Below are positions 4,174-25,834 of a stretch of DNA of 64,000 nucleotides, piece after piece (positions within the stretch are counted from its first letter, which is position 1; each line of letters starts with the position of its first letter). The notes under the pieces were generated by a model. It worked only from the letters and a program-made list of their open reading frames with translations, had not been told where the DNA came from and made no database searches. The position numbers and the translations under genes were made by a program. The stretch is taken from NCBI GenBank assembly GCA_016187335.1, contig JACPJW010000001.1, positions 352,001 to 416,000 on the forward strand. The letters run 5' to 3'. Origin of the DNA: Candidatus Aenigmatarchaeota archaeon (GTDB lineage Archaea > Aenigmatarchaeota > Aenigmatarchaeia > GW2011-AR5).

Positions 4174-5397
4174 TTAGTTTCCGAGTCTTTCAACAAGCAT
4201 ACTGTTAACCCTTTGGAGTATTGTGTCGTTTATGGCAAGGACTACTTCCCTTGTGCGGCCGTACCTGCCTTTCGAGATTACCTTCGCTGTTATCACGCCC
4301 AGCATGTCCAGTTCCCCGATGAGGTCGCTTACCCTGCGCTGCGTCAGCGTTTTCAGGTTGTTCCTGGCGCATACTTCCTTGTACATTTCGTATATGTCGC
4401 CTGTGAGCATCCTGGTGTCAGCCCACTTTTTCTGGCTGCCGTATTTCTCCTGCAGCTTTATTATTGAATACATCACCGCCTGCGACTGCTTTGGCTGTAG
4501 TTTAATTGTTTCTGTGACGCGGTCCATGTCTATTTTTTCTTCGGCGAGCTCTACGTGCTTGTAGGTTATCTGGCTGTCGCCCAGTCTTTCCGCAACCTCG
4601 CCGGCAACGCGCAGGAGGTCAATGGCCCTTCGTGCGTCTCCGTGCTCCTGGGCGGCCATGGCAGCGCACATGCTTATTATTTCCTCGCTTATTGTGTCCT
4701 CAATAACACCTTCGGAAACGCGCTGCGCCAGGATGTCCTTGAGCTGCAGGGCGTCGTATGGCTTGAATATAATCTCTTCGTCGCTCAGGGATGACTTGAT
4801 CCGTGCGTCAAGATTGTCCCTGAAAGAAAGGTCGTTAGTTATGCCCACAAGCGTTATCGTCGCGTTTTTCATCTCCCCGTTGACGCGCGTCAGGTTGTAT
4901 AGAAAATCGTCGCCTATTTTCTTGTAAAGGCTGTCTATCTCGTCAAGGACGAGGATGATTGTCTGCTTTTTTTCGTCAATTTTCTCGAAGAATCTGCGGT
5001 AAAGCAGGTGTGTCGGAAGGCCTGTTTCCGGAACGAATTCGCCTATTTCCTTGAGCAGCTGCGCCAGAAGGCGGTATTCCGTGTCGGATACTTTCTTCAT
5101 CTTGCAGTTGATATATACGGTCCTGATCCCCCTGCCTTTGCTTATTTCCTCCAGTTGCGACAGCACATACCTTATGGATATCGTCTTCCCGGTGCCGACA
5201 GTGCCGTAGATAAAAAGATTGCTGGGCTGGTATCCGCGAAGCGCCGGGGCAAGGATGTTTGATATTGACTTTATTTCCTCCTCTCTGTGGGGGATTTTGC
5301 TTGGCATAAAAGAAGACGTCAGTGCCTTTTTGTTTTTGAAAATGCTTTCCTTTTCGACAAAACGCAAGAATATGTTGTCTTTCTTAGTGACCTGCAC
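4174..5397 (-). CDS. cdc6: Orc1/Cdc6 replication initiator
   Basis: IYGTVGTGKT Walker A, VLDEID Walker B, HGDARRAIDLL, C-terminal wH with GRYGRT. Confidence 0.97.
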   Translation of the reverse strand: MQVTKKDNIFLRFVEKESIFKNKKALTSSFMPSKIPHREEEIKSISNILAPALRGYQPSNLFIYGTVGTGKTISIRYVLSQLEEISKGRGIRTVYINCKMKKVSDTEYRLLAQLLKEIGEFVPETGLPTHLLYRRFFEKIDEKKQTIILVLDEIDSLYKKIGDDFLYNLTRVNGEMKNATITLVGITNDLSFRDNLDARIKSSLSDEEIIFKPYDALQLKDILAQRVSEGVIEDTISEEIISMCAAMAAQEHGDARRAIDLLRVAGEVAERLGDSQITYKHVELAEEKIDMDRVTETIKLQPKQSQAVMYSIIKLQEKYGSQKKWADTRMLTGDIYEMYKEVCARNNLKTLTQRRVSDLIGELDMLGVITAKVISKGRYGRTREVVLAINDTILQRVNSMLVERLGN

Positions 5398-5399
5398 TT

Positions 5400-6020
5400 A
5401 CACCACACCCCTTAAACCCAAATCAGAAACAAACCACAGTAAATTCGCGGTTTGTTTCACATCCATTTCATATGGAAGTTCTTTTATTATTAACATCGTC
5501 GTTTATAAGTATTGTTGCAGAAGAAATATAGGTTTGACAAAATATATTTTCTAAAAATCTATACATACCCCTTCATTTCTCATGGAAACCCCCATATAAA
5601 ATATATTGATAACATCGTTATAAGAAAGAAAGGTATGTGTCATTTCCAATTTTTTCCTAAATTTTAGTATTTCCACACGAAACGCCTCCATGAGAAACTA
5701 TGGAGTAGGTAACCTCACCTTCTTTTGGAAGTTTCACAAACAAATTATAACACAGTTATACGAGTGGAAATGTAGTTTAACTAACACGATTTTAACAACA
5801 CAGTAAGGGACGACACCAGAAGAAATAAAGTCTTTATGCACTTCATATTTTTTGGGGTTTTAGGTATTTTTTGAACATCGTTTGAAATATAATTTTATTA
5901 CTTAAAAATAAGTAAATTTCAAAATTTCTATGCTTTAGTAGGATAATTATATTTTGCATGGTTTTTATGTCAACTGCTTCAAGTAGAGTTTCAAGCGGAA
6001 CTTCTATTATTTTGCACAAT
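5400..6020. other. Putative replication origin (oriC) with ORB/mini-ORB boxes and AT-rich tracts
   Basis: 620-bp non-coding region upstream of cdc6. ORB with G-string GTTTCCATGAGAAATGAAGGGGT (minus, about 5567-5590), opposite-strand CTCCATGAGAAAC (5686-5698), TTTCCACACGAAAC (5670), CTTCCATATGAAATG (minus, about 5464-5478), GTTCCGCTTGAAAC (minus, 5988-6001). Confidence 0.85.
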
Positions 6021-6025
6021 GTTAA

Positions 6026-22602: not shown

Positions 22603-23123
22603 GCCTTGTAGTCCTCGTAAACAGGTCCATTTGAGCTGAGAATAGATTTCTTCAGCTTTACCTTGTCTACGGTCATCGCGCCGATTTCAACGTTCTGGCT
22701 GTTCTTTAAAAAATCCATCAATTGCTCCTTCCCCCTGACAGACCTTACCCTTGCCAGGGTCAGGTGCGGTGTTATGTCACGTTCTTTTTCAAAAGGCGGG
22801 CACAGGGCTTGTTCAACGGCGTGCTGCAATGCATGCAGTTCCGGCGCGCCGAGCCAGACAACCCGTATGTAGCTAAGCGAAGGGAAAGCGCCCAGCCCCT
22901 TTACGGAAATCTCAAAAGGCTGCCAGTCTTTCAGTAAATCACCGATGACGTTTTTTACGTAAGATATCTGGTCATCACTTGCTTCTCCAAGGAATTTCAT
23001 TGTGAAATGCAGGTTCTCTTCTTCCACTAACTTCACATCAGCTACCTCGTTCAGTTGTTTTTGGATTTCCAGAGCAGCTGGTTTTAGTGCTTCATCCAGG
23101 TCAACAGCCAGAAAGCAGCGCAT
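22587..23123 (-). CDS. thpR: RNA 2',3'-cyclic phosphodiesterase (2H family)
   Basis: Two HxT motifs (HFTM, HLTL), RVVW, GPVY. Confidence 0.93.
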   Translation of the reverse strand: MRCFLAVDLDEALKPAALEIQKQLNEVADVKLVEEENLHFTMKFLGEASDDQISYVKNVIGDLLKDWQPFEISVKGLGAFPSLSYIRVVWLGAPELHALQHAVEQALCPPFEKERDITPHLTLARVRSVRGKEQLMDFLKNSQNVEIGAMTVDKVKLKKSILSSNGPVYEDYKAWELK

Positions 23124-23270
23124 GTTTTAAGTATTGGGAAGCGATATTTAAAAGTAAACAAGAAAAATGAGAGACGTGAGGGTAATTCCCGCAGCCTGCA
23201 AAATTCTTCGTTTTCTGGCGGTTTTGGCAGCAAAAACCTTTTAGTATACAGTCGTACAAAGTATTTTTCA

Positions 23271-23576
23271 ATGGGAAGGAAAAAAGGCTTTGATAATCGG
23301 AAAATAGTGGCCATAGTGGGTGTGTTAGTCAGTAATCCGGACGGCTTATGGCTCAGGAACATAGCAAGAGAGACTAAACTACATCCATTGACTGTTTCTA
23401 AGTATCTGGATACGGTTCTGAGACCTCTGGTCGAAGAAACAAGCCTCAGGAGCGAGAAAAAGCCAATCTTGCGCGTGATTAAACTCAAGCCGTTTGTCCT
23501 TGAAAAGATGCAGGAAGGCCGGAACATACAGCAGATTCTTCGCATGCTCAAGCTTATGGAAAGCGTGAGAGAATAG
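23271..23576 (+). CDS. Winged-helix DNA-binding protein
   Basis: GLWLRNIARETKLHPLTVSKYL HTH followed by a beta wing. Confidence 0.8.
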   Translation: MGRKKGFDNRKIVAIVGVLVSNPDGLWLRNIARETKLHPLTVSKYLDTVLRPLVEETSLRSEKKPILRVIKLKPFVLEKMQEGRNIQQILRMLKLMESVRE

Positions 23577-23630
23577 GAAAAGCAAGAAAATCTTGTTCTA
23601 AGACAGCTATTGTCTTTTCGAGTTTTAGCC

Positions 23631-23980
23631 CTTCACGTGAACTTCACGGCAACTTCATGAACATCTCCGTGAACTTGATGAACTCTTCGTGAAGGTCTGT
23701 GAATACTAAAAATTTTCCCTCACAAAATTCACTTTCTAGAATTATCAAACTCACATTCTACGTATTTACTCTAACTAAAACCCATAATGCTCTTCATAAA
23801 CCCTTCATATGAACTTCACCAAACCTTCATAAAACCTTCACGAACTTCACGGTGAATACATATGAAGTTCACGAAAATCACGTGAATTCACGAAGAAAAA
23901 AGCCAATTTCTGTGAAGGTTTTAGCCTTTTAGCATGAACAATTTGTGAACTTCACGAGCAAAAAGCATTTAAGCCGTGAA
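23631..23980. repeat. Dense phased array of TTCAY/RTGAA pentamers around an AT-rich spacer
   Basis: 13 TTCAY and 14 RTGAA counted in 350 bp; GTGAACTTCAC at 23637 and 23945; TTCAY exactly 11 bp apart at 23793/804/815/826/837. Confidence 0.85.
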
Positions 23981-23994
23981 GTTAATAGGTTTGC

Positions 23995-25182
23995 ATGGAA
24001 GAAGAAAGCGATAAAACCGATGAAAAGAGCACTAACATAAGAAATGAGAAGTCTTTGGAAGAGATAAATGAGAGCCCCGCTGTCAGGCAGGAAGCTGAAA
24101 AGCCTAAAAAAGAGGTACCCATTGTCTTCTCATCTTCTGAGTGGTTTTCAGCAAAGAGATGGAGCAATAATCCCTTTACTTTCAGCATACTTCCGTCACT
24201 TTTTGTAGGTTACAAAGAGCAGACATCAAGGCTCATGCTTTTTCTCGAAGAAAAGCACAAATTCCTGCTTGTCGTAGGCCCTACCGGCTCGGGCAAAACC
24301 ACGTTGCTGAAGTGGATTCAAGGCAATTTACCAGGCAGCGACACTTTGTACATTGGCAAGCCGCCTGAAACGCCGGCTGATTTTGTTGACATATTCAATG
24401 ACAAGTTCAAGGCACCTTGGTTTTTACGCCCTTTTTCACCGAAAATAAAAAATATTTACCAAGTGCCTGATTTCCTGAACAAACGGCTGAAGAAAAAACA
24501 CCTTGTCGTGTTTATTGACGAAATACACGAAGCAGATTTAGAAATTTTAGAATGGCTGCGCGTGCTTGGTGACCAGGTCGACAACATATCATTTTTGCTT
24601 TCAGGCCTGCCGAGCTTTGACCATGACCTTTCGACAAAGCTGGAGACCTTCCGAAAAAGGATTACAGCCAAGATAGAGCTTCTATCTCTCACAAAAGAAG
24701 AGACGCAACAGCTCATTCAGAGAAGAATACAACATGTTGGGGGTCAGGGTAATGAATTTCCACAAGATGTTGTGGATTTTATTTACAGCCGCAGCGGCGG
24801 CTTTCCACGTGAGGTTTTGCGTTTGTGCGACGAGTTTATAAACCAGGCAATATTAAAAGGCAGCCCTGATATCTCTCTGGATCTTCTGGGAGGCGTGACG
24901 GAGGAAAAAATAGAGCAGCAGGTTTATTTGGATGTTTTAGAAAAAATGACGCCCATGCAGCGGGAAATTTTGGAAGTGCTTGCGCAAAAGCCGCTGTCGC
25001 CGGGCCAGATTGCAAACAGCCTGAACCTGGAAAAATACAAGTCACGGCAGCACGCCGTGCGCAGCGTGAACAATATTCTGAAATTCCTGCTGAAGCAGGA
25101 CTACGTTGAGCGGCAGCAGTTCGAGAAAACCTTCGTCTACTCCCTGACGCCGAAGATAAAGACGCTGATGGTGAAAGCATGA
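23995..25182 (+). CDS. ExeA/AAA_22-like AAA+ ATPase with C-terminal winged helix
   Basis: NNPF, GPTGSGKTT, VFIDEIH, LSGLP, FRKRI, SGGFPREVLRLCD; C-terminal PMQREIL..SPGQIA..YSLTP wHTH. Confidence 0.85.
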   Translation: MEEESDKTDEKSTNIRNEKSLEEINESPAVRQEAEKPKKEVPIVFSSSEWFSAKRWSNNPFTFSILPSLFVGYKEQTSRLMLFLEEKHKFLLVVGPTGSGKTTLLKWIQGNLPGSDTLYIGKPPETPADFVDIFNDKFKAPWFLRPFSPKIKNIYQVPDFLNKRLKKKHLVVFIDEIHEADLEILEWLRVLGDQVDNISFLLSGLPSFDHDLSTKLETFRKRITAKIELLSLTKEETQQLIQRRIQHVGGQGNEFPQDVVDFIYSRSGGFPREVLRLCDEFINQAILKGSPDISLDLLGGVTEEKIEQQVYLDVLEKMTPMQREILEVLAQKPLSPGQIANSLNLEKYKSRQHAVRSVNNILKFLLKQDYVERQQFEKTFVYSLTPKIKTLMVKA

Positions 25183-25276: not shown

Positions 25277-25834
25277 ATGGCCATATCAGTTGCAGAAGCG
25301 AACCATCTAAATTTTCTTGTCGAGGACTTATCTCCCTTTAGAGGAGAATATTTAACCCAAATTTACGAACGACACCCACAACTTCTGCGTGCTTTTGATA
25401 GATACGCTTTGAAAGGTGGATTGGAACAATTTGAAGCTTTGCCAGTTACATCAATATATGGAGCAGAAGATAGACCAGTATATCAAGAAGTTACTAATGC
25501 CTTAGAAGAAGCCGCTGCAAGAGGAGAACCTGAAAAAGATCAATTTTTACGTAGATTAAGACAGACATATCTGGAAGCGCATAGAGTTGTCCTAGAAGAA
25601 GGTGAAAAAACTCACCGCGCTGTTCGCGTTTTGCCTATAGAGTATCATCATATCGTTGAAAGTAGATTGGATACTTTACAAGGGGTTTCTTCATGCCTAA
25701 GAGATTTATACAAAGTAATGGTCGATATTGTAGGTCAATCTGTTGGGCTTGAAAGAACAAAAAGAACTCCTGATATTCCTCTGGAAAGTTATGACGATAT
25801 CCCGGTAGACTGGCTTAATGATTCTTCTAAGTAG
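25277..25834 (+). CDS. Orphan hypothetical protein
   Basis: 185 aa, AT-richer codon usage, own promoter. Confidence 0.7.
   Translation: MAISVAEANHLNFLVEDLSPFRGEYLTQIYERHPQLLRAFDRYALKGGLEQFEALPVTSIYGAEDRPVYQEVTNALEEAAARGEPEKDQFLRRLRQTYLEAHRVVLEEGEKTHRAVRVLPIEYHHIVESRLDTLQGVSSCLRDLYKVMVDIVGQSVGLERTKRTPDIPLESYDDIPVDWLNDSSK

Follow-up and report, generated by a model that had tools for sequence, protein, structure and literature searches.

What purpose is served by an array of short phased repeats lying between a small winged-helix gene and an AAA+ ATPase gene in the chromosome of a small Aenigmatarchaeota archaeon from groundwater? Chromosome segregation and the organisation of origin regions are poorly understood in archaea, and for the DPANN archaea the picture is almost blank. 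The window analysed here, a 64,000-nucleotide stretch of the genome, had been described from its letters alone as holding a candidate new origin or partition system. This sequence-only reading is partly supported: the pairing of a site with genes for its putative binders is real and conserved, but a role as the main origin is excluded by an ORB/cdc6 origin 18 kb away. The claim that no such archaeal system had been described holds for the searchable literature, in which neither the ATPase family nor the array was found. The array may act as a chromosome landmark, an extra origin or a regulatory switch.

Between 23631 and 23980 (350 bp) there are 27 TTCAY/RTGAA pentamers, 13 forward and 14 reverse, compared to a mean of 2.2 (sd 1.5) per 350 bp across the 1.01-Mb genome; recomputation thus reproduced the count first reported, 27 where about two were expected by chance. 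All of the box starts given previously hold (TTCAY at 23632/43/54 and 23793/804/815/826/837; RTGAA at 23657/69/78/89/99), and a further TTCAY starts at 23846. The boxes are helically phased, as had been claimed, with 39 same-orientation pairs at multiples of 10.5 bp versus 10.8 ± 3.1 in shuffled data; none of 5000 position shuffles attained 39 pairs. A genome-wide pentamer count revealed no comparable array elsewhere. The next-highest peaks contain 11 boxes each and are due to K/E-rich coding bias, and the secondary peaks at C1:17134 and C2:697104 were rejected as arrays on these grounds. Outside the array, TTCAC-N6-TTCAC shows no genome-wide excess over other spacings. Both genome occurrences of GTGAACTTCAC, and the single occurrence of TTCACGTGAA, lie within the array. 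An Rfam scan of 23000–24300 gave nothing near any gathering score. The features of the locus are collected in Table 1.

Table 1. Features of the array locus and of the canonical origin, in window coordinates
Feature	Position	Strand	Details
Canonical Orc1/Cdc6 gene (4174-5397) and ORB-type origin (5398-6025)	4174..6025	-	TIGR02928 410.7 bits
Small winged-helix protein, 101 aa	23271..23576	+	conserved N-terminal MGRKKGF arm
Left box cluster	23632..23703	.	dyad TTCACGTGAA-C-TTCAC, then RTGAA run, spacing 9-12 bp
Box-poor, A-rich, G-poor centre	23704..23792	+	CTCACA boxes at 23719 and 23750; AAAAnCCrTAAT block conserved
Right run	23793..23851	+	six TTCAY boxes, five exactly 11 bp apart
Promoter-proximal cluster	23852..23980	.	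dyads and RTGAA boxes; TATA-like ATTTAAG 23967-23973; GTGAA 23976
AAA+ ATPase, C-terminal winged helix, 395 aa	23995..25182	+	Pfam AAA_22, AF2 model
PRC-barrel protein, 84 aa	25991..26245	+	PF05239 23.6 bits, cut-off 21.2

A G-poor spacer of about 90 bp had been noticed between the facing runs, and the centre measures 89 bp, with a G content of 5–7% in the measured part and one stray TTCAC. Its proposed likeness to a plain unwinding element was not borne out, as it is not plain AT-rich DNA but bears conserved CTCACR boxes pointing in one direction; its two CTCACA copies had been missed. Across 27 arrays CTCACR occurs 91 times in forward and 11 times in reverse orientation, at 5.0 per kb versus 0.22 per kb in the genome. 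At the downstream end, the GTGAA box sits between the TATA-like element and the ATPase start codon, an order found again in relatives. The locus displays the phased direct repeats and inverted repeats at the ATPase promoter that are typical of iteron-type sites; neither an exceptional AT-rich unwinding element nor a mobile or extrachromosomal context was found there.

The array is not an assembly artefact: in contigs assembled independently by another study in 2017, 23653–23958 is identical, with zero differences. It is also kept by relatives. All 27 of the 30 same-family loci with a measurable intergenic stretch have the wHTH gene, an array of 24–47 boxes and the ATPase gene. In same-family loci the left run comprises 4–10 RTGAA boxes and the right run 4–8 boxes at 11 bp. 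The earlier concern that orthologous loci might lack repeats clearly fails, because boxes are retained at them phylum-wide. Nearly all lineages of the class have such boxes ahead of the ATPase gene, in numbers from 2–4 to 24–47. Expanded arrays (24–47 phased boxes over 0.4–0.9 kb, with CTCACR boxes and the small wHTH protein) occur in many families; minimal lineages have 2–4 direct boxes upstream of TATA and one or two inverted boxes after it. The box core is fixed among families, while number and arrangement vary. Two facing runs around a spacer are conserved only in this genome's order, and other families have the same boxes otherwise arranged or just 2–4 phased at the ATPase promoter, so the facing layout is not a defining feature. 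Three minimal-lineage genomes (G070, G091 and G162) contain another one or two triple-box sites at other loci, against an expectation of about 0.015 per genome and none in reversed-pattern controls. The labels of the tree follow a strict-core count, by which some same-family loci with mostly TTCAT boxes are mislabelled, and its root, placed on two long outgroup branches, is uncertain.

The product of the downstream gene had been described as an ExeA/TnsC-like AAA+ protein with a C-terminal wHTH, and both Pfam (AAA_22, PF13401, 53.2 bits, cut-off 27) and an AlphaFold model confirm this. Following a disordered N-terminus (residues 1–45), it contains the Walker A motif GPTGSGKT, the Walker B motif DEIHE, a GGFPR sensor 2 and a W-x2-NPF lead-in. 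Relatives show no variation in Walker A/B, sensor 2 or a candidate arginine finger, nor in the recognition helix, A-V-R-S-V-N-N. The AF2 model (pLDDT 82) has the AAA+ base, lid and C-terminal winged-helix fold of Orc1/Cdc6, and its closest fold is that of archaeal Orc/Cdc6; the best matches are A. pernix ORC2 (Z 19.7), MuB (17.3) and TnsC (16.8), and the Orc-type matches include 1w5t/1w5s (A. pernix ORC2, Z 19.6–19.7 over 316–318 residues), 2qby, 1fnn and 2v1u. Between strands 116–120 and 170–174, the region in which the initiator-specific helical insertion between strand 2 and Walker B would be sought, the model places three helices, at 129–137, 142–147 and 154–165. Membership of the Orc1/Cdc6 family was rejected, since the protein fails the family sequence models. 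A whole-genome search with TIGR02928 recovered the canonical cdc6 (4243–5343) and one P-loop match and did not match the ATPase (23995..25182), Pfam found no Cdc6_C or Cdc6_lid in it, and hhalign against the phylum's canonical Cdc6 (probability 38%, E 3.4e-4) aligned the AAA+ part only. Nor is it a TIGR03015 equivalog (ExeA-like PEP-CTERM ATPase), because its score of 81.6 bits is far under the cut-off of 324.5. A PDB sequence profile search gave P-loop-level matches only, and searches of plasmid and phage proteins returned bacterial AAA ATPases at 24–30% identity and one Mu-like phage ATPase, with no relatives among them. The gene is single-copy and present in 142 of 201 Aenigmatarchaeota genomes, where its relatives share 37–76% protein identity and a fixed syntenic position without mobile context.

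The AlphaFold model likewise confirms the small wHTH protein upstream, with a MarR-like wHTH fold (pLDDT 85.6). It had no match in Pfam and none in a PDB sequence profile search, and shows weak similarity to the IS21 transposase HTH (E 0.0019). Its gene immediately precedes the array in 27 of the 30 same-family loci and is also found in families f10, f13, f19, f27, f30 and f34; it is restricted to lineages with an expanded array and missing from many lineages. Of about 50 loci examined across the class, nearly all have the PRC-barrel gene just 3' of the ATPase gene, and a 185-aa orphan between the two (25277–25834) is found in this genome alone. The conserved neighbours of the ATPase gene are LigT, wHTH, PRC-barrel, RadA and RPA. 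No transposase, integrase, tRNA target or secretion gene occurs in this conserved neighbourhood, nor does any ParA/SegA, ParM or TubZ-type motor gene, the sole NTPase being the AAA+ protein.

The principal origin lies about 18 kb from the array. In 10 of 10 genomes inspected, inverted ORB boxes with G-strings surround an ATAACAsTGTTAT palindrome next to cdc6. ORB-type elements (dyad and G-string) are found beside the canonical cdc6 and not at the array, whose box core differs. In duplex stability the most meltable stretch of the ORB origin ranks in the top 0.01% of the contig, versus the top 1.3% for the array centre. The array is not the main origin, as the canonical origin 18 kb away has by far the better unwinding element. 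The detrended MK-disparity minimum falls at about window position 5389, at cdc6; skews in GC, AT and RY along the 918-kb contig gave no clear origin signal, at a resolution insufficient to tell apart two sites 18 kb from each other. Array and type-A cdc6 are separated by 0.35–58 kb in 58 of 58 genomes with both on one contig. This distance differs among families. In family f13 the array is directly beside cdc6, its blocks flanking a very AT-rich tract 0.3–1.5 kb from the gene; in G063, G072 and G106, all 2–4-box lineages, the ATPase gene is at least 70 kb from cdc6. The ATPase co-occurs with type-A Cdc6, and families with only the other Cdc6 type (f18, f20, f29 and f31) are without it.

We tentatively favour the view, to which we give rather less than an even chance, that an ATP-dependent oligomer on phased boxes serves as an autoregulated, origin-proximal, centromere-type chromosome landmark. 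For this we infer an assignment of boxes to proteins, ATP-dependent oligomerisation, autorepression and a biological role for the array. The array would be the one place on the chromosome where a sequence-specific AAA+ protein assembles, and the invariant winged-helix recognition helix of that protein would read the TTCAC/GTGAA core. As the boxes recur every 10.5–11 bp on one face of the DNA, ATP-bound protomers could join head to tail via their AAA+ modules, in the manner of DnaA on the phased low-affinity boxes of E. coli oriC, with the dyads TTCACGTGAA and GTGAAnTTCAC acting as strong nucleation sites. The small wHTH protein would occupy the one-directional CTCACR boxes, while the box between TATA and the start codon would allow the complex to switch off its own gene. 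In this way each chromosome would carry a single large nucleoprotein complex within a few tens of kb of the ORB/cdc6 origin, and this complex might provide a handle for organising or segregating newly replicated origin regions by a logic like that of ParB–parS beside bacterial oriC.

Several features are consistent with such a landmark. The site is unique in the genome and its boxes are phased. Where the box core is conserved, so is the recognition helix, and a distant Asgard relative (24% identity) differs in both: its helix departs from that of the Aenigmatarchaeota ATPase and, at the one Asgard locus read, the gene is preceded by about nine 11-bp repeats whose core is another one. The nearest folds are those of oligomerising, DNA-bound AAA+ proteins (Orc/Cdc6, MuB and TnsC), and the ATPase motifs are intact and invariant in a core single-copy gene without mobile context. 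Linkage to the origin in 58 of 58 genomes, and absence of the ATPase where only the other Cdc6 type occurs, point the same way, although gene order inherited in common by related genomes may account for part of this proximity. Variable box number and arrangement around a fixed core are also seen in centromere repeats. Against a landmark, the 2–4-box lineages show the protein occurring with no large array, and in three of their genomes its gene is at least 70 kb from cdc6; the extra triple-box sites of minimal lineages suit a regulator. The partition or centromere reading suggested at the outset is strengthened by the conserved place of the array close to the origin, but the conserved neighbourhood contains no ParA, ParM or TubZ-type motor; we know of no partition system that employs an AAA+ protein.

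Known centromeres suitable for comparison include R1 parC/ParR, pBtoxis tubC/TubR, pNOB8 AspA and parS/ParB near bacterial oriC. Like these, the array consists of short phased repeats directly upstream of a putative binder operon, for which they would double as operator; there is one site per replicon, repeat number varies among relatives, and a small winged-helix protein is encoded alongside, as in TubR and AspA. The origin-proximal position is shared with chromosomal parS. Unique centromere-like repeats adjoining a binder operon, by which par systems are recognised, are therefore present, the resemblance being structural only. In contrast to par systems (types I–III and SegAB/AspA), the array locus has no ParA/SegA, ParM or TubZ cytomotive NTPase but an AAA+ ATPase as its large protein, and many lineages do without the small wHTH.

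A different role, as an auxiliary or second origin of the iteron type, would have the Orc-shaped ATPase act as its dedicated initiator, with oligomers on the two opposed runs melting the centre and recruiting MCM and the promoter dyads providing autorepression; promoter autorepression is known from iteron plasmids and from Sulfolobus initiator–origin pairs. The predicted full-length fold of the ATPase is closest to archaeal Orc/Cdc6 (Z 17.6–19.7 for the best full-length structural matches), with which it shares an AAA+ base, lid and C-terminal winged helix in about 400 aa. Its gene adjoins its repeated putative sites as cdc6 adjoins ORBs, and in this order an A-rich centre lies between sites of opposite polarity. 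RadA and RPA as neighbours, co-occurrence with type-A Cdc6 and the AT-rich tract flanked by the f13 array blocks would also fit an origin. E. coli oriC reportedly contains two opposed low-affinity arrays of DnaA boxes with an 11-bp period. The locus resembles it in having an AAA+ protein of the initiator clade whose DNA-binding domain is C-terminal, and 11-bp-phased boxes in two opposite runs with stronger sites at the ends, which by analogy would imply ATP-dependent head-to-tail oligomers. Unlike DnaA, however, the ATPase is archaeal, belongs to another family and has a winged helix in place of domain IV, and the array is not at the principal origin. The ATPase differs from Orc1/Cdc6 in having a GGxPR rather than a GDAR sensor 2 and in failing the sequence tests of that family, and the array has 24–47 copies of a 5-bp core at 11 bp rather than 2–4 long G-string ORBs. 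We consider a second origin unlikely. The true ORB origin, conserved and far more meltable, is at another place in this genome, and a second one 0.35–58 kb from it would bring no replication gain to a 1-Mb genome. The centre holds conserved directional boxes, the inverted layout is not kept outside this order, and many lineages have the ATPase with just 2–4 promoter boxes.

The array could instead be purely regulatory, in its expanded form a high-capacity operator or sink that sharpens or buffers a switch, with the ATPase as an ATP-sensing transcription factor controlling its own operon and a few genes, much as Sulfolobus Orc1-2 is an Orc-like regulator. This is conceivable, if doubtful. The boxes of minimal lineages flank TATA at archaeal activator and repressor positions, this genome has one box 3' of the TATA element and ahead of the ATG, and the triple-box sites of three genomes far exceed expectation. 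On the other hand, no target exists outside the array in this genome, which would leave such a factor with only its own gene and the PRC-barrel gene to control. An array of 24–47 phased boxes over 0.4–0.9 kb, with a second box type and protein, is to our knowledge far above any known operator; regulation also has no need of conserved origin proximity. Descent from a mobile element is the remaining explanation, whereby facing transposon ends and a TnsC/MuB/IstB-like helper, or an integrated plasmid replicon, were domesticated or are decaying without a present role. The ATPase does have AAA_22 as its best Pfam family, a GGxPR sensor 2 and MuB and TnsC among its best folds, its modelled AAA+ module superposing on these with an rmsd of 4.0–4.4 Å over 226–231 residues; the small wHTH weakly matches the IS21 transposase HTH, and the two inverted runs look like abutted transposon ends. 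MuB, TnsC and ExeA-type ATPases polymerise on DNA without sequence specificity and are partnered with a transposase or secretion system. The ATPase, by contrast, has a predicted sequence-reading winged helix and a fixed chromosomal locus, and neither a transposase (TnsB, MuA, IstA) nor a type II secretion partner is among its conserved neighbours. A mobile remnant is highly improbable given that 142 of 201 genomes have the ATPase as a single-copy core gene with fixed synteny, invariant catalytic residues and 37–76% identity, that neither a transposase nor an integrase or tRNA target is in its conserved neighbourhood, and that the searches found no plasmid or virus relatives; conservation already indicates strong purifying selection on protein and boxes.

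Whichever role applies, the array and its putative binder genes form a phylum-wide, single-copy module tied to the canonical origin. A centromere or organiser would add a new protein class to partition biology, an origin would entail an Orc-shaped, non-Orc initiator acting like DnaA, and a regulator would represent a striking expansion of an operator. It is an improbable idea that Aenigmatarchaeota, and possibly other archaea with relatives of the ATPase, have a chromosome-marking system of a hitherto unknown class, in which a sequence-specific AAA+ polymer on 11-bp-phased boxes beside the origin acts as centromere or organiser; if true, it would be the first partition or organiser system built on an initiator-clade AAA+ ATPase, bridging Orc/Cdc6 origin recognition and the centromere. 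With a simple fixed code (TTCAC at 11 bp) and a pair of small soluble proteins, the module is open to direct in vitro testing without cultivation. Annotators can now name an ATPase family that is mislabelled as ‘ExeA’, ‘T2SS ATPase’ or ‘TadA’. Several arrays in the assemblies of relatives contain N gaps, and the arrays thus explain assembly breaks in these genomes.

The source genome consists of two contigs totalling 1,014,551 bp, the window corresponding to C2:352001-416000, and carries the ATPase gene in a single copy. The 418-bp gap between this gene and the small wHTH gene contains 13 TTCAY and 14 RTGAA pentamers, against a background of 2.2 per 350 bp (sd 1.5) in the whole genome. On recount these lie at exactly the coordinates listed in an earlier, sequence-only reading, which had proposed a new origin or partition system here. 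The runner-up windows genome-wide hold 11 boxes; both are coding sequence rich in lysine and glutamate and were on that ground ruled out as further arrays. The helical phasing claimed for the boxes was upheld: 39 same-orientation pairs are spaced at multiples of 10.5 bp, compared with 10.8 +/- 3.1 after shuffling, and none of 5000 position shuffles reached 39. GTGAACTTCAC occurs twice and TTCACGTGAA once in the array, both being absent elsewhere in the source genome. An independent groundwater study from 2017 yielded contigs that match 23653-23958 with zero differences, so the array is no artefact of assembly. Short-read assembly is interrupted by the array repeats: contigs of the source runs break at window 23831-23860, and N runs occur inside the arrays of several public genomes (loci L007, L067, L068).

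Positions in the window of the genes around the array and of the canonical origin
Feature	Window position	Remark
Canonical Orc1/Cdc6 gene	4174-5397	TIGR02928, 410.7 bits
cdc6-proximal origin	5398-6025	630-bp region upstream of cdc6, inverted ORB boxes
Small wHTH gene	23271-23576	upstream of array
ATPase gene	23995-25182	downstream of array

Within the order, 54 of 61 relatives have the ATPase, among them all 14 genomes of high quality. Orthologous gene pairs carry similar arrays, as the earlier reading had proposed to check: of the 30 loci in the same family, 27 have a co-oriented small wHTH gene upstream, then a gap of 420-950 bp that in every case holds 24-47 TTCAY/RTGAA boxes. Their pooled spacings peak at 11, 21-22, 31, 42 and 52 bp, and 889 pooled boxes give the consensus A-n-C-TTCAC-G-n-A-A-A. 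The family layout begins with dyads, an RTGAA run, a box-free centre of 45-125 bp and then 4-8 TTCAY at 11 bp; further dyads follow, with scattered RTGAA up to a TATA-like element and a last GTGAA just before the start codon.

The centre (A 39%, T 29%, C 22%, G 10%) is no plain AT-rich spacer. Besides a conserved AAAAnCCrTAAT block it has a pair of CTCACR boxes separated by 31-42 bp, and one to three additional CTCACR boxes lie upstream of the left run. Across the 27 arrays, 91 copies of CTCACR point the same way as the gene and 11 the opposite way, at a density of 5.0 per kb compared with 0.22 per kb genome-wide. In families f10, f19 and f30 the CTCACR boxes form a separate cluster adjoining the small wHTH gene. 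We infer that CTCACR is read by the small wHTH protein and TTCAC by the ATPase.

The small protein is indeed a winged helix, MarR-like and with a conserved basic N-terminal arm. The ATPase had been described as ExeA/TnsC-like with a C-terminal wHTH, which agrees with its match to Pfam AAA_22 (53.2 bits) and with its AlphaFold model (pLDDT 82), in which a disordered N-terminus leads into an AAA+ base and lid, with a winged helix at the C-terminus; the match to ExeA-like TIGR03015 is weak (81.6 bits, cut-off 324.5). The best structural match to the model is A. pernix ORC2 (Z 19.7), and Cdc6 and Orc1 proteins of Drosophila, Sulfolobus, Pyrobaculum and Aeropyrum score Z 17.6-18.7; MuB (Z 17.3) and TnsC (Z 16.8) are also among the top matches. 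By sequence, assignment to Orc1/Cdc6 was rejected: the TIGR02928 search does not detect the ATPase, and when it is compared, profile against profile, with the canonical Cdc6 of the phylum, the probability is 38%, for the AAA+ part alone. Walker A, Walker B, an arginine after strand 4, a GGFPR sensor 2 and, within the winged helix, the helix YKSRQHAVRSVNN are invariant, the core A-[VI]-R-[SA]-x-N-N of the last being kept in 53 sequences across the class. The named close homologues are all from Aenigmatarchaeota; the public names given to the family (AAA family ATPase, ExeA, T2SS/T4P ATPase, TadA) are either unspecific or incorrect.

The components, an initiator-clade AAA+ ATPase, a winged helix and phased repeats, are already familiar. 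A full-text literature search found no description of the ATPase family or the array, in line with the earlier statement that no archaeal system of this layout is known to have been described. A paper on PRC-barrel proteins lists gene neighbourhoods, this one not among them (bioRxiv 10.1101/2023.03.28.534520).

Of 201 genomes sampled from the phylum, 142 have the ATPase by profile search, as do 70 of the 92 that are of high quality; families f18 (1 of 42 with the gene) and f20 (0 of 9) lack it. The order LigT(-), (wHTH, array), ATPase, 84-aa PRC-barrel gene, RadA(-), RPA(-) recurs class-wide. Only in the source genome does a 185-aa orphan without family match (window 25277-25834) lie between the ATPase and PRC-barrel genes; these are adjacent in relatives, including a genome of the same genus, and the orphan is thus a recent insertion.

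The upstream wHTH gene is absent from f14, f16, f17, f22 and f11, most of which have only 2-4 direct TTCAC with 11-bp spacing, shortly before the TATA element of the ATPase gene, and 1-2 inverted boxes after it (minimal lineages); the f11 locus inspected has almost no boxes. Two f16 loci (L034, L045) also have dense TTCAC/GTGAA within the coding sequences of the divergent LigT gene and of the gene that follows it, reflecting either codon bias or a gene-overlapping array. A three-box 11-bp pattern, expected 0.015 times per genome and with none in reversed-pattern controls, is found at 1-2 further loci in some minimal-type genomes, and nowhere outside the array in the source genome. In the ATPase tree, the root of which is uncertain, lineages with wHTH and large array (f1, f5, f9, f10, f19, f24, f27, f30, f34) form one clade (SH-aLRT 87). 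Family f13 has both too, but its array is built of direct higher-order repeats. From this and the minimal lineages it follows that the general features are the box core, the 11-bp phasing and the position before the ATPase gene. The opposed runs noted earlier are conserved in the source genome's family, but are limited to its order and differ elsewhere.

The ORB boxes, meltability and the minimum of the detrended MK disparity, which falls in the cdc6 region, place the main origin at cdc6. The array as main origin is thereby contradicted: the region upstream of cdc6 contains one of the most meltable stretches (top 0.01% of the 918-kb contig by nearest-neighbour energy), versus top 1.3% only for the array centre. 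In all 10 genomes inspected, from several families, an ORB with G-string, the conserved palindrome ATAACAsTGTTAT and an inverted ORB occur in this order upstream of cdc6. The two inverted ORB boxes of this core, conserved class-wide (also at L053-L061), read TTCCAnnGGAAA plus G-string, and the intergenic regions they occupy measure just 180-630 bp.

The array is tied to this origin in position. By our own reading of the result tables, the ATPase lies 0.35-58 kb from type A cdc6 in 58 of 58 genomes with both on one contig, at a distance that varies between families; in f13, wHTH, array, ATPase and cdc6 follow one another in this order within ~1.5 kb. In three minimal-type genomes (G063, G072, G106) the two genes sit on separate contigs, with a distance of 70 kb or more between them. 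The phylum has two Cdc6 types, A (400-450 bits to TIGR02928, ~400-440 aa) and B (~260-280 bits, ~350-370 aa); f14, f22, f11, f21 and f23 usually have both. Nearly all type A families have the ATPase, three genomes in f15 and f32 being the exceptions, and f18, f20, f29 and f31 have type B only and no ATPase. Since the families are interrelated, few independent events lie behind this co-occurrence.

The best-supported mechanistic core of an interpretation is that a sequence-specific AAA+ protein of the initiator/loader clade would bind boxes on one face of the DNA and repress the promoter of its own gene. That it may assemble on them head to tail in an ATP-dependent manner is suggested by the phasing at 11 bp, by an ATPase site that is intact and by kinship with DNA-oligomerising proteins; the closest analogy is DnaA at the phased boxes of E. 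coli oriC. Ranked first, though tentatively, is a role of the array as an origin-proximal landmark of centromere or organiser type. This would best explain the uniqueness of the site, its many boxes, which vary in number while their core stays fixed, its position beside the operon, with presumed autoregulation, and its lasting nearness to the origin despite rearrangements; the weak point of this reading is that no known motor gene accompanies the array.

The minimal lineages are well accommodated by a pure regulatory switch, which is nevertheless a doubtful second, as it leaves 24-47 boxes unexplained and the source genome has no other target. The same lineages count against an auxiliary origin, as do a canonical origin that is conserved close by, a centre that melts no more easily than is ordinary and the unconserved layout, and this third reading is unlikely. 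That the array is the relic of a mobile element is highly improbable and ranks last.

Outside the phylum, 111 cluster representatives match the ATPase at E < 1e-30, and distant full-length relatives have a GW-x2-NPF lead-in, a GGxPR motif and a C-terminal winged helix. Upstream of one distant homologue (24% identity), on an Asgard MAG contig (L065:2275-2380), are some nine repeats of 11 bp whose core is TTACA/TAAACA. As a single case in AT-rich DNA, this is only suggestive of phased boxes as a family trait beyond Aenigmatarchaeota.

Elsewhere in the source genome (G000), outside the window, two promoters, at C2:653451 (+) and C2:806391 (-), have in common TGTTTCAC-N3-TGTTTCAC, after which come GAAAC in inverted orientation and a TATA box; a different regulator, with no relation to the array, probably uses this as its operator. 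Also outside the window, a repeat is shared by C2:745218 (+) and the distant C2:132643 (-); over a compared stretch of about 70 nt, which starts with GGGTTCACATATAGTTCACAAGG, the two copies are identical.
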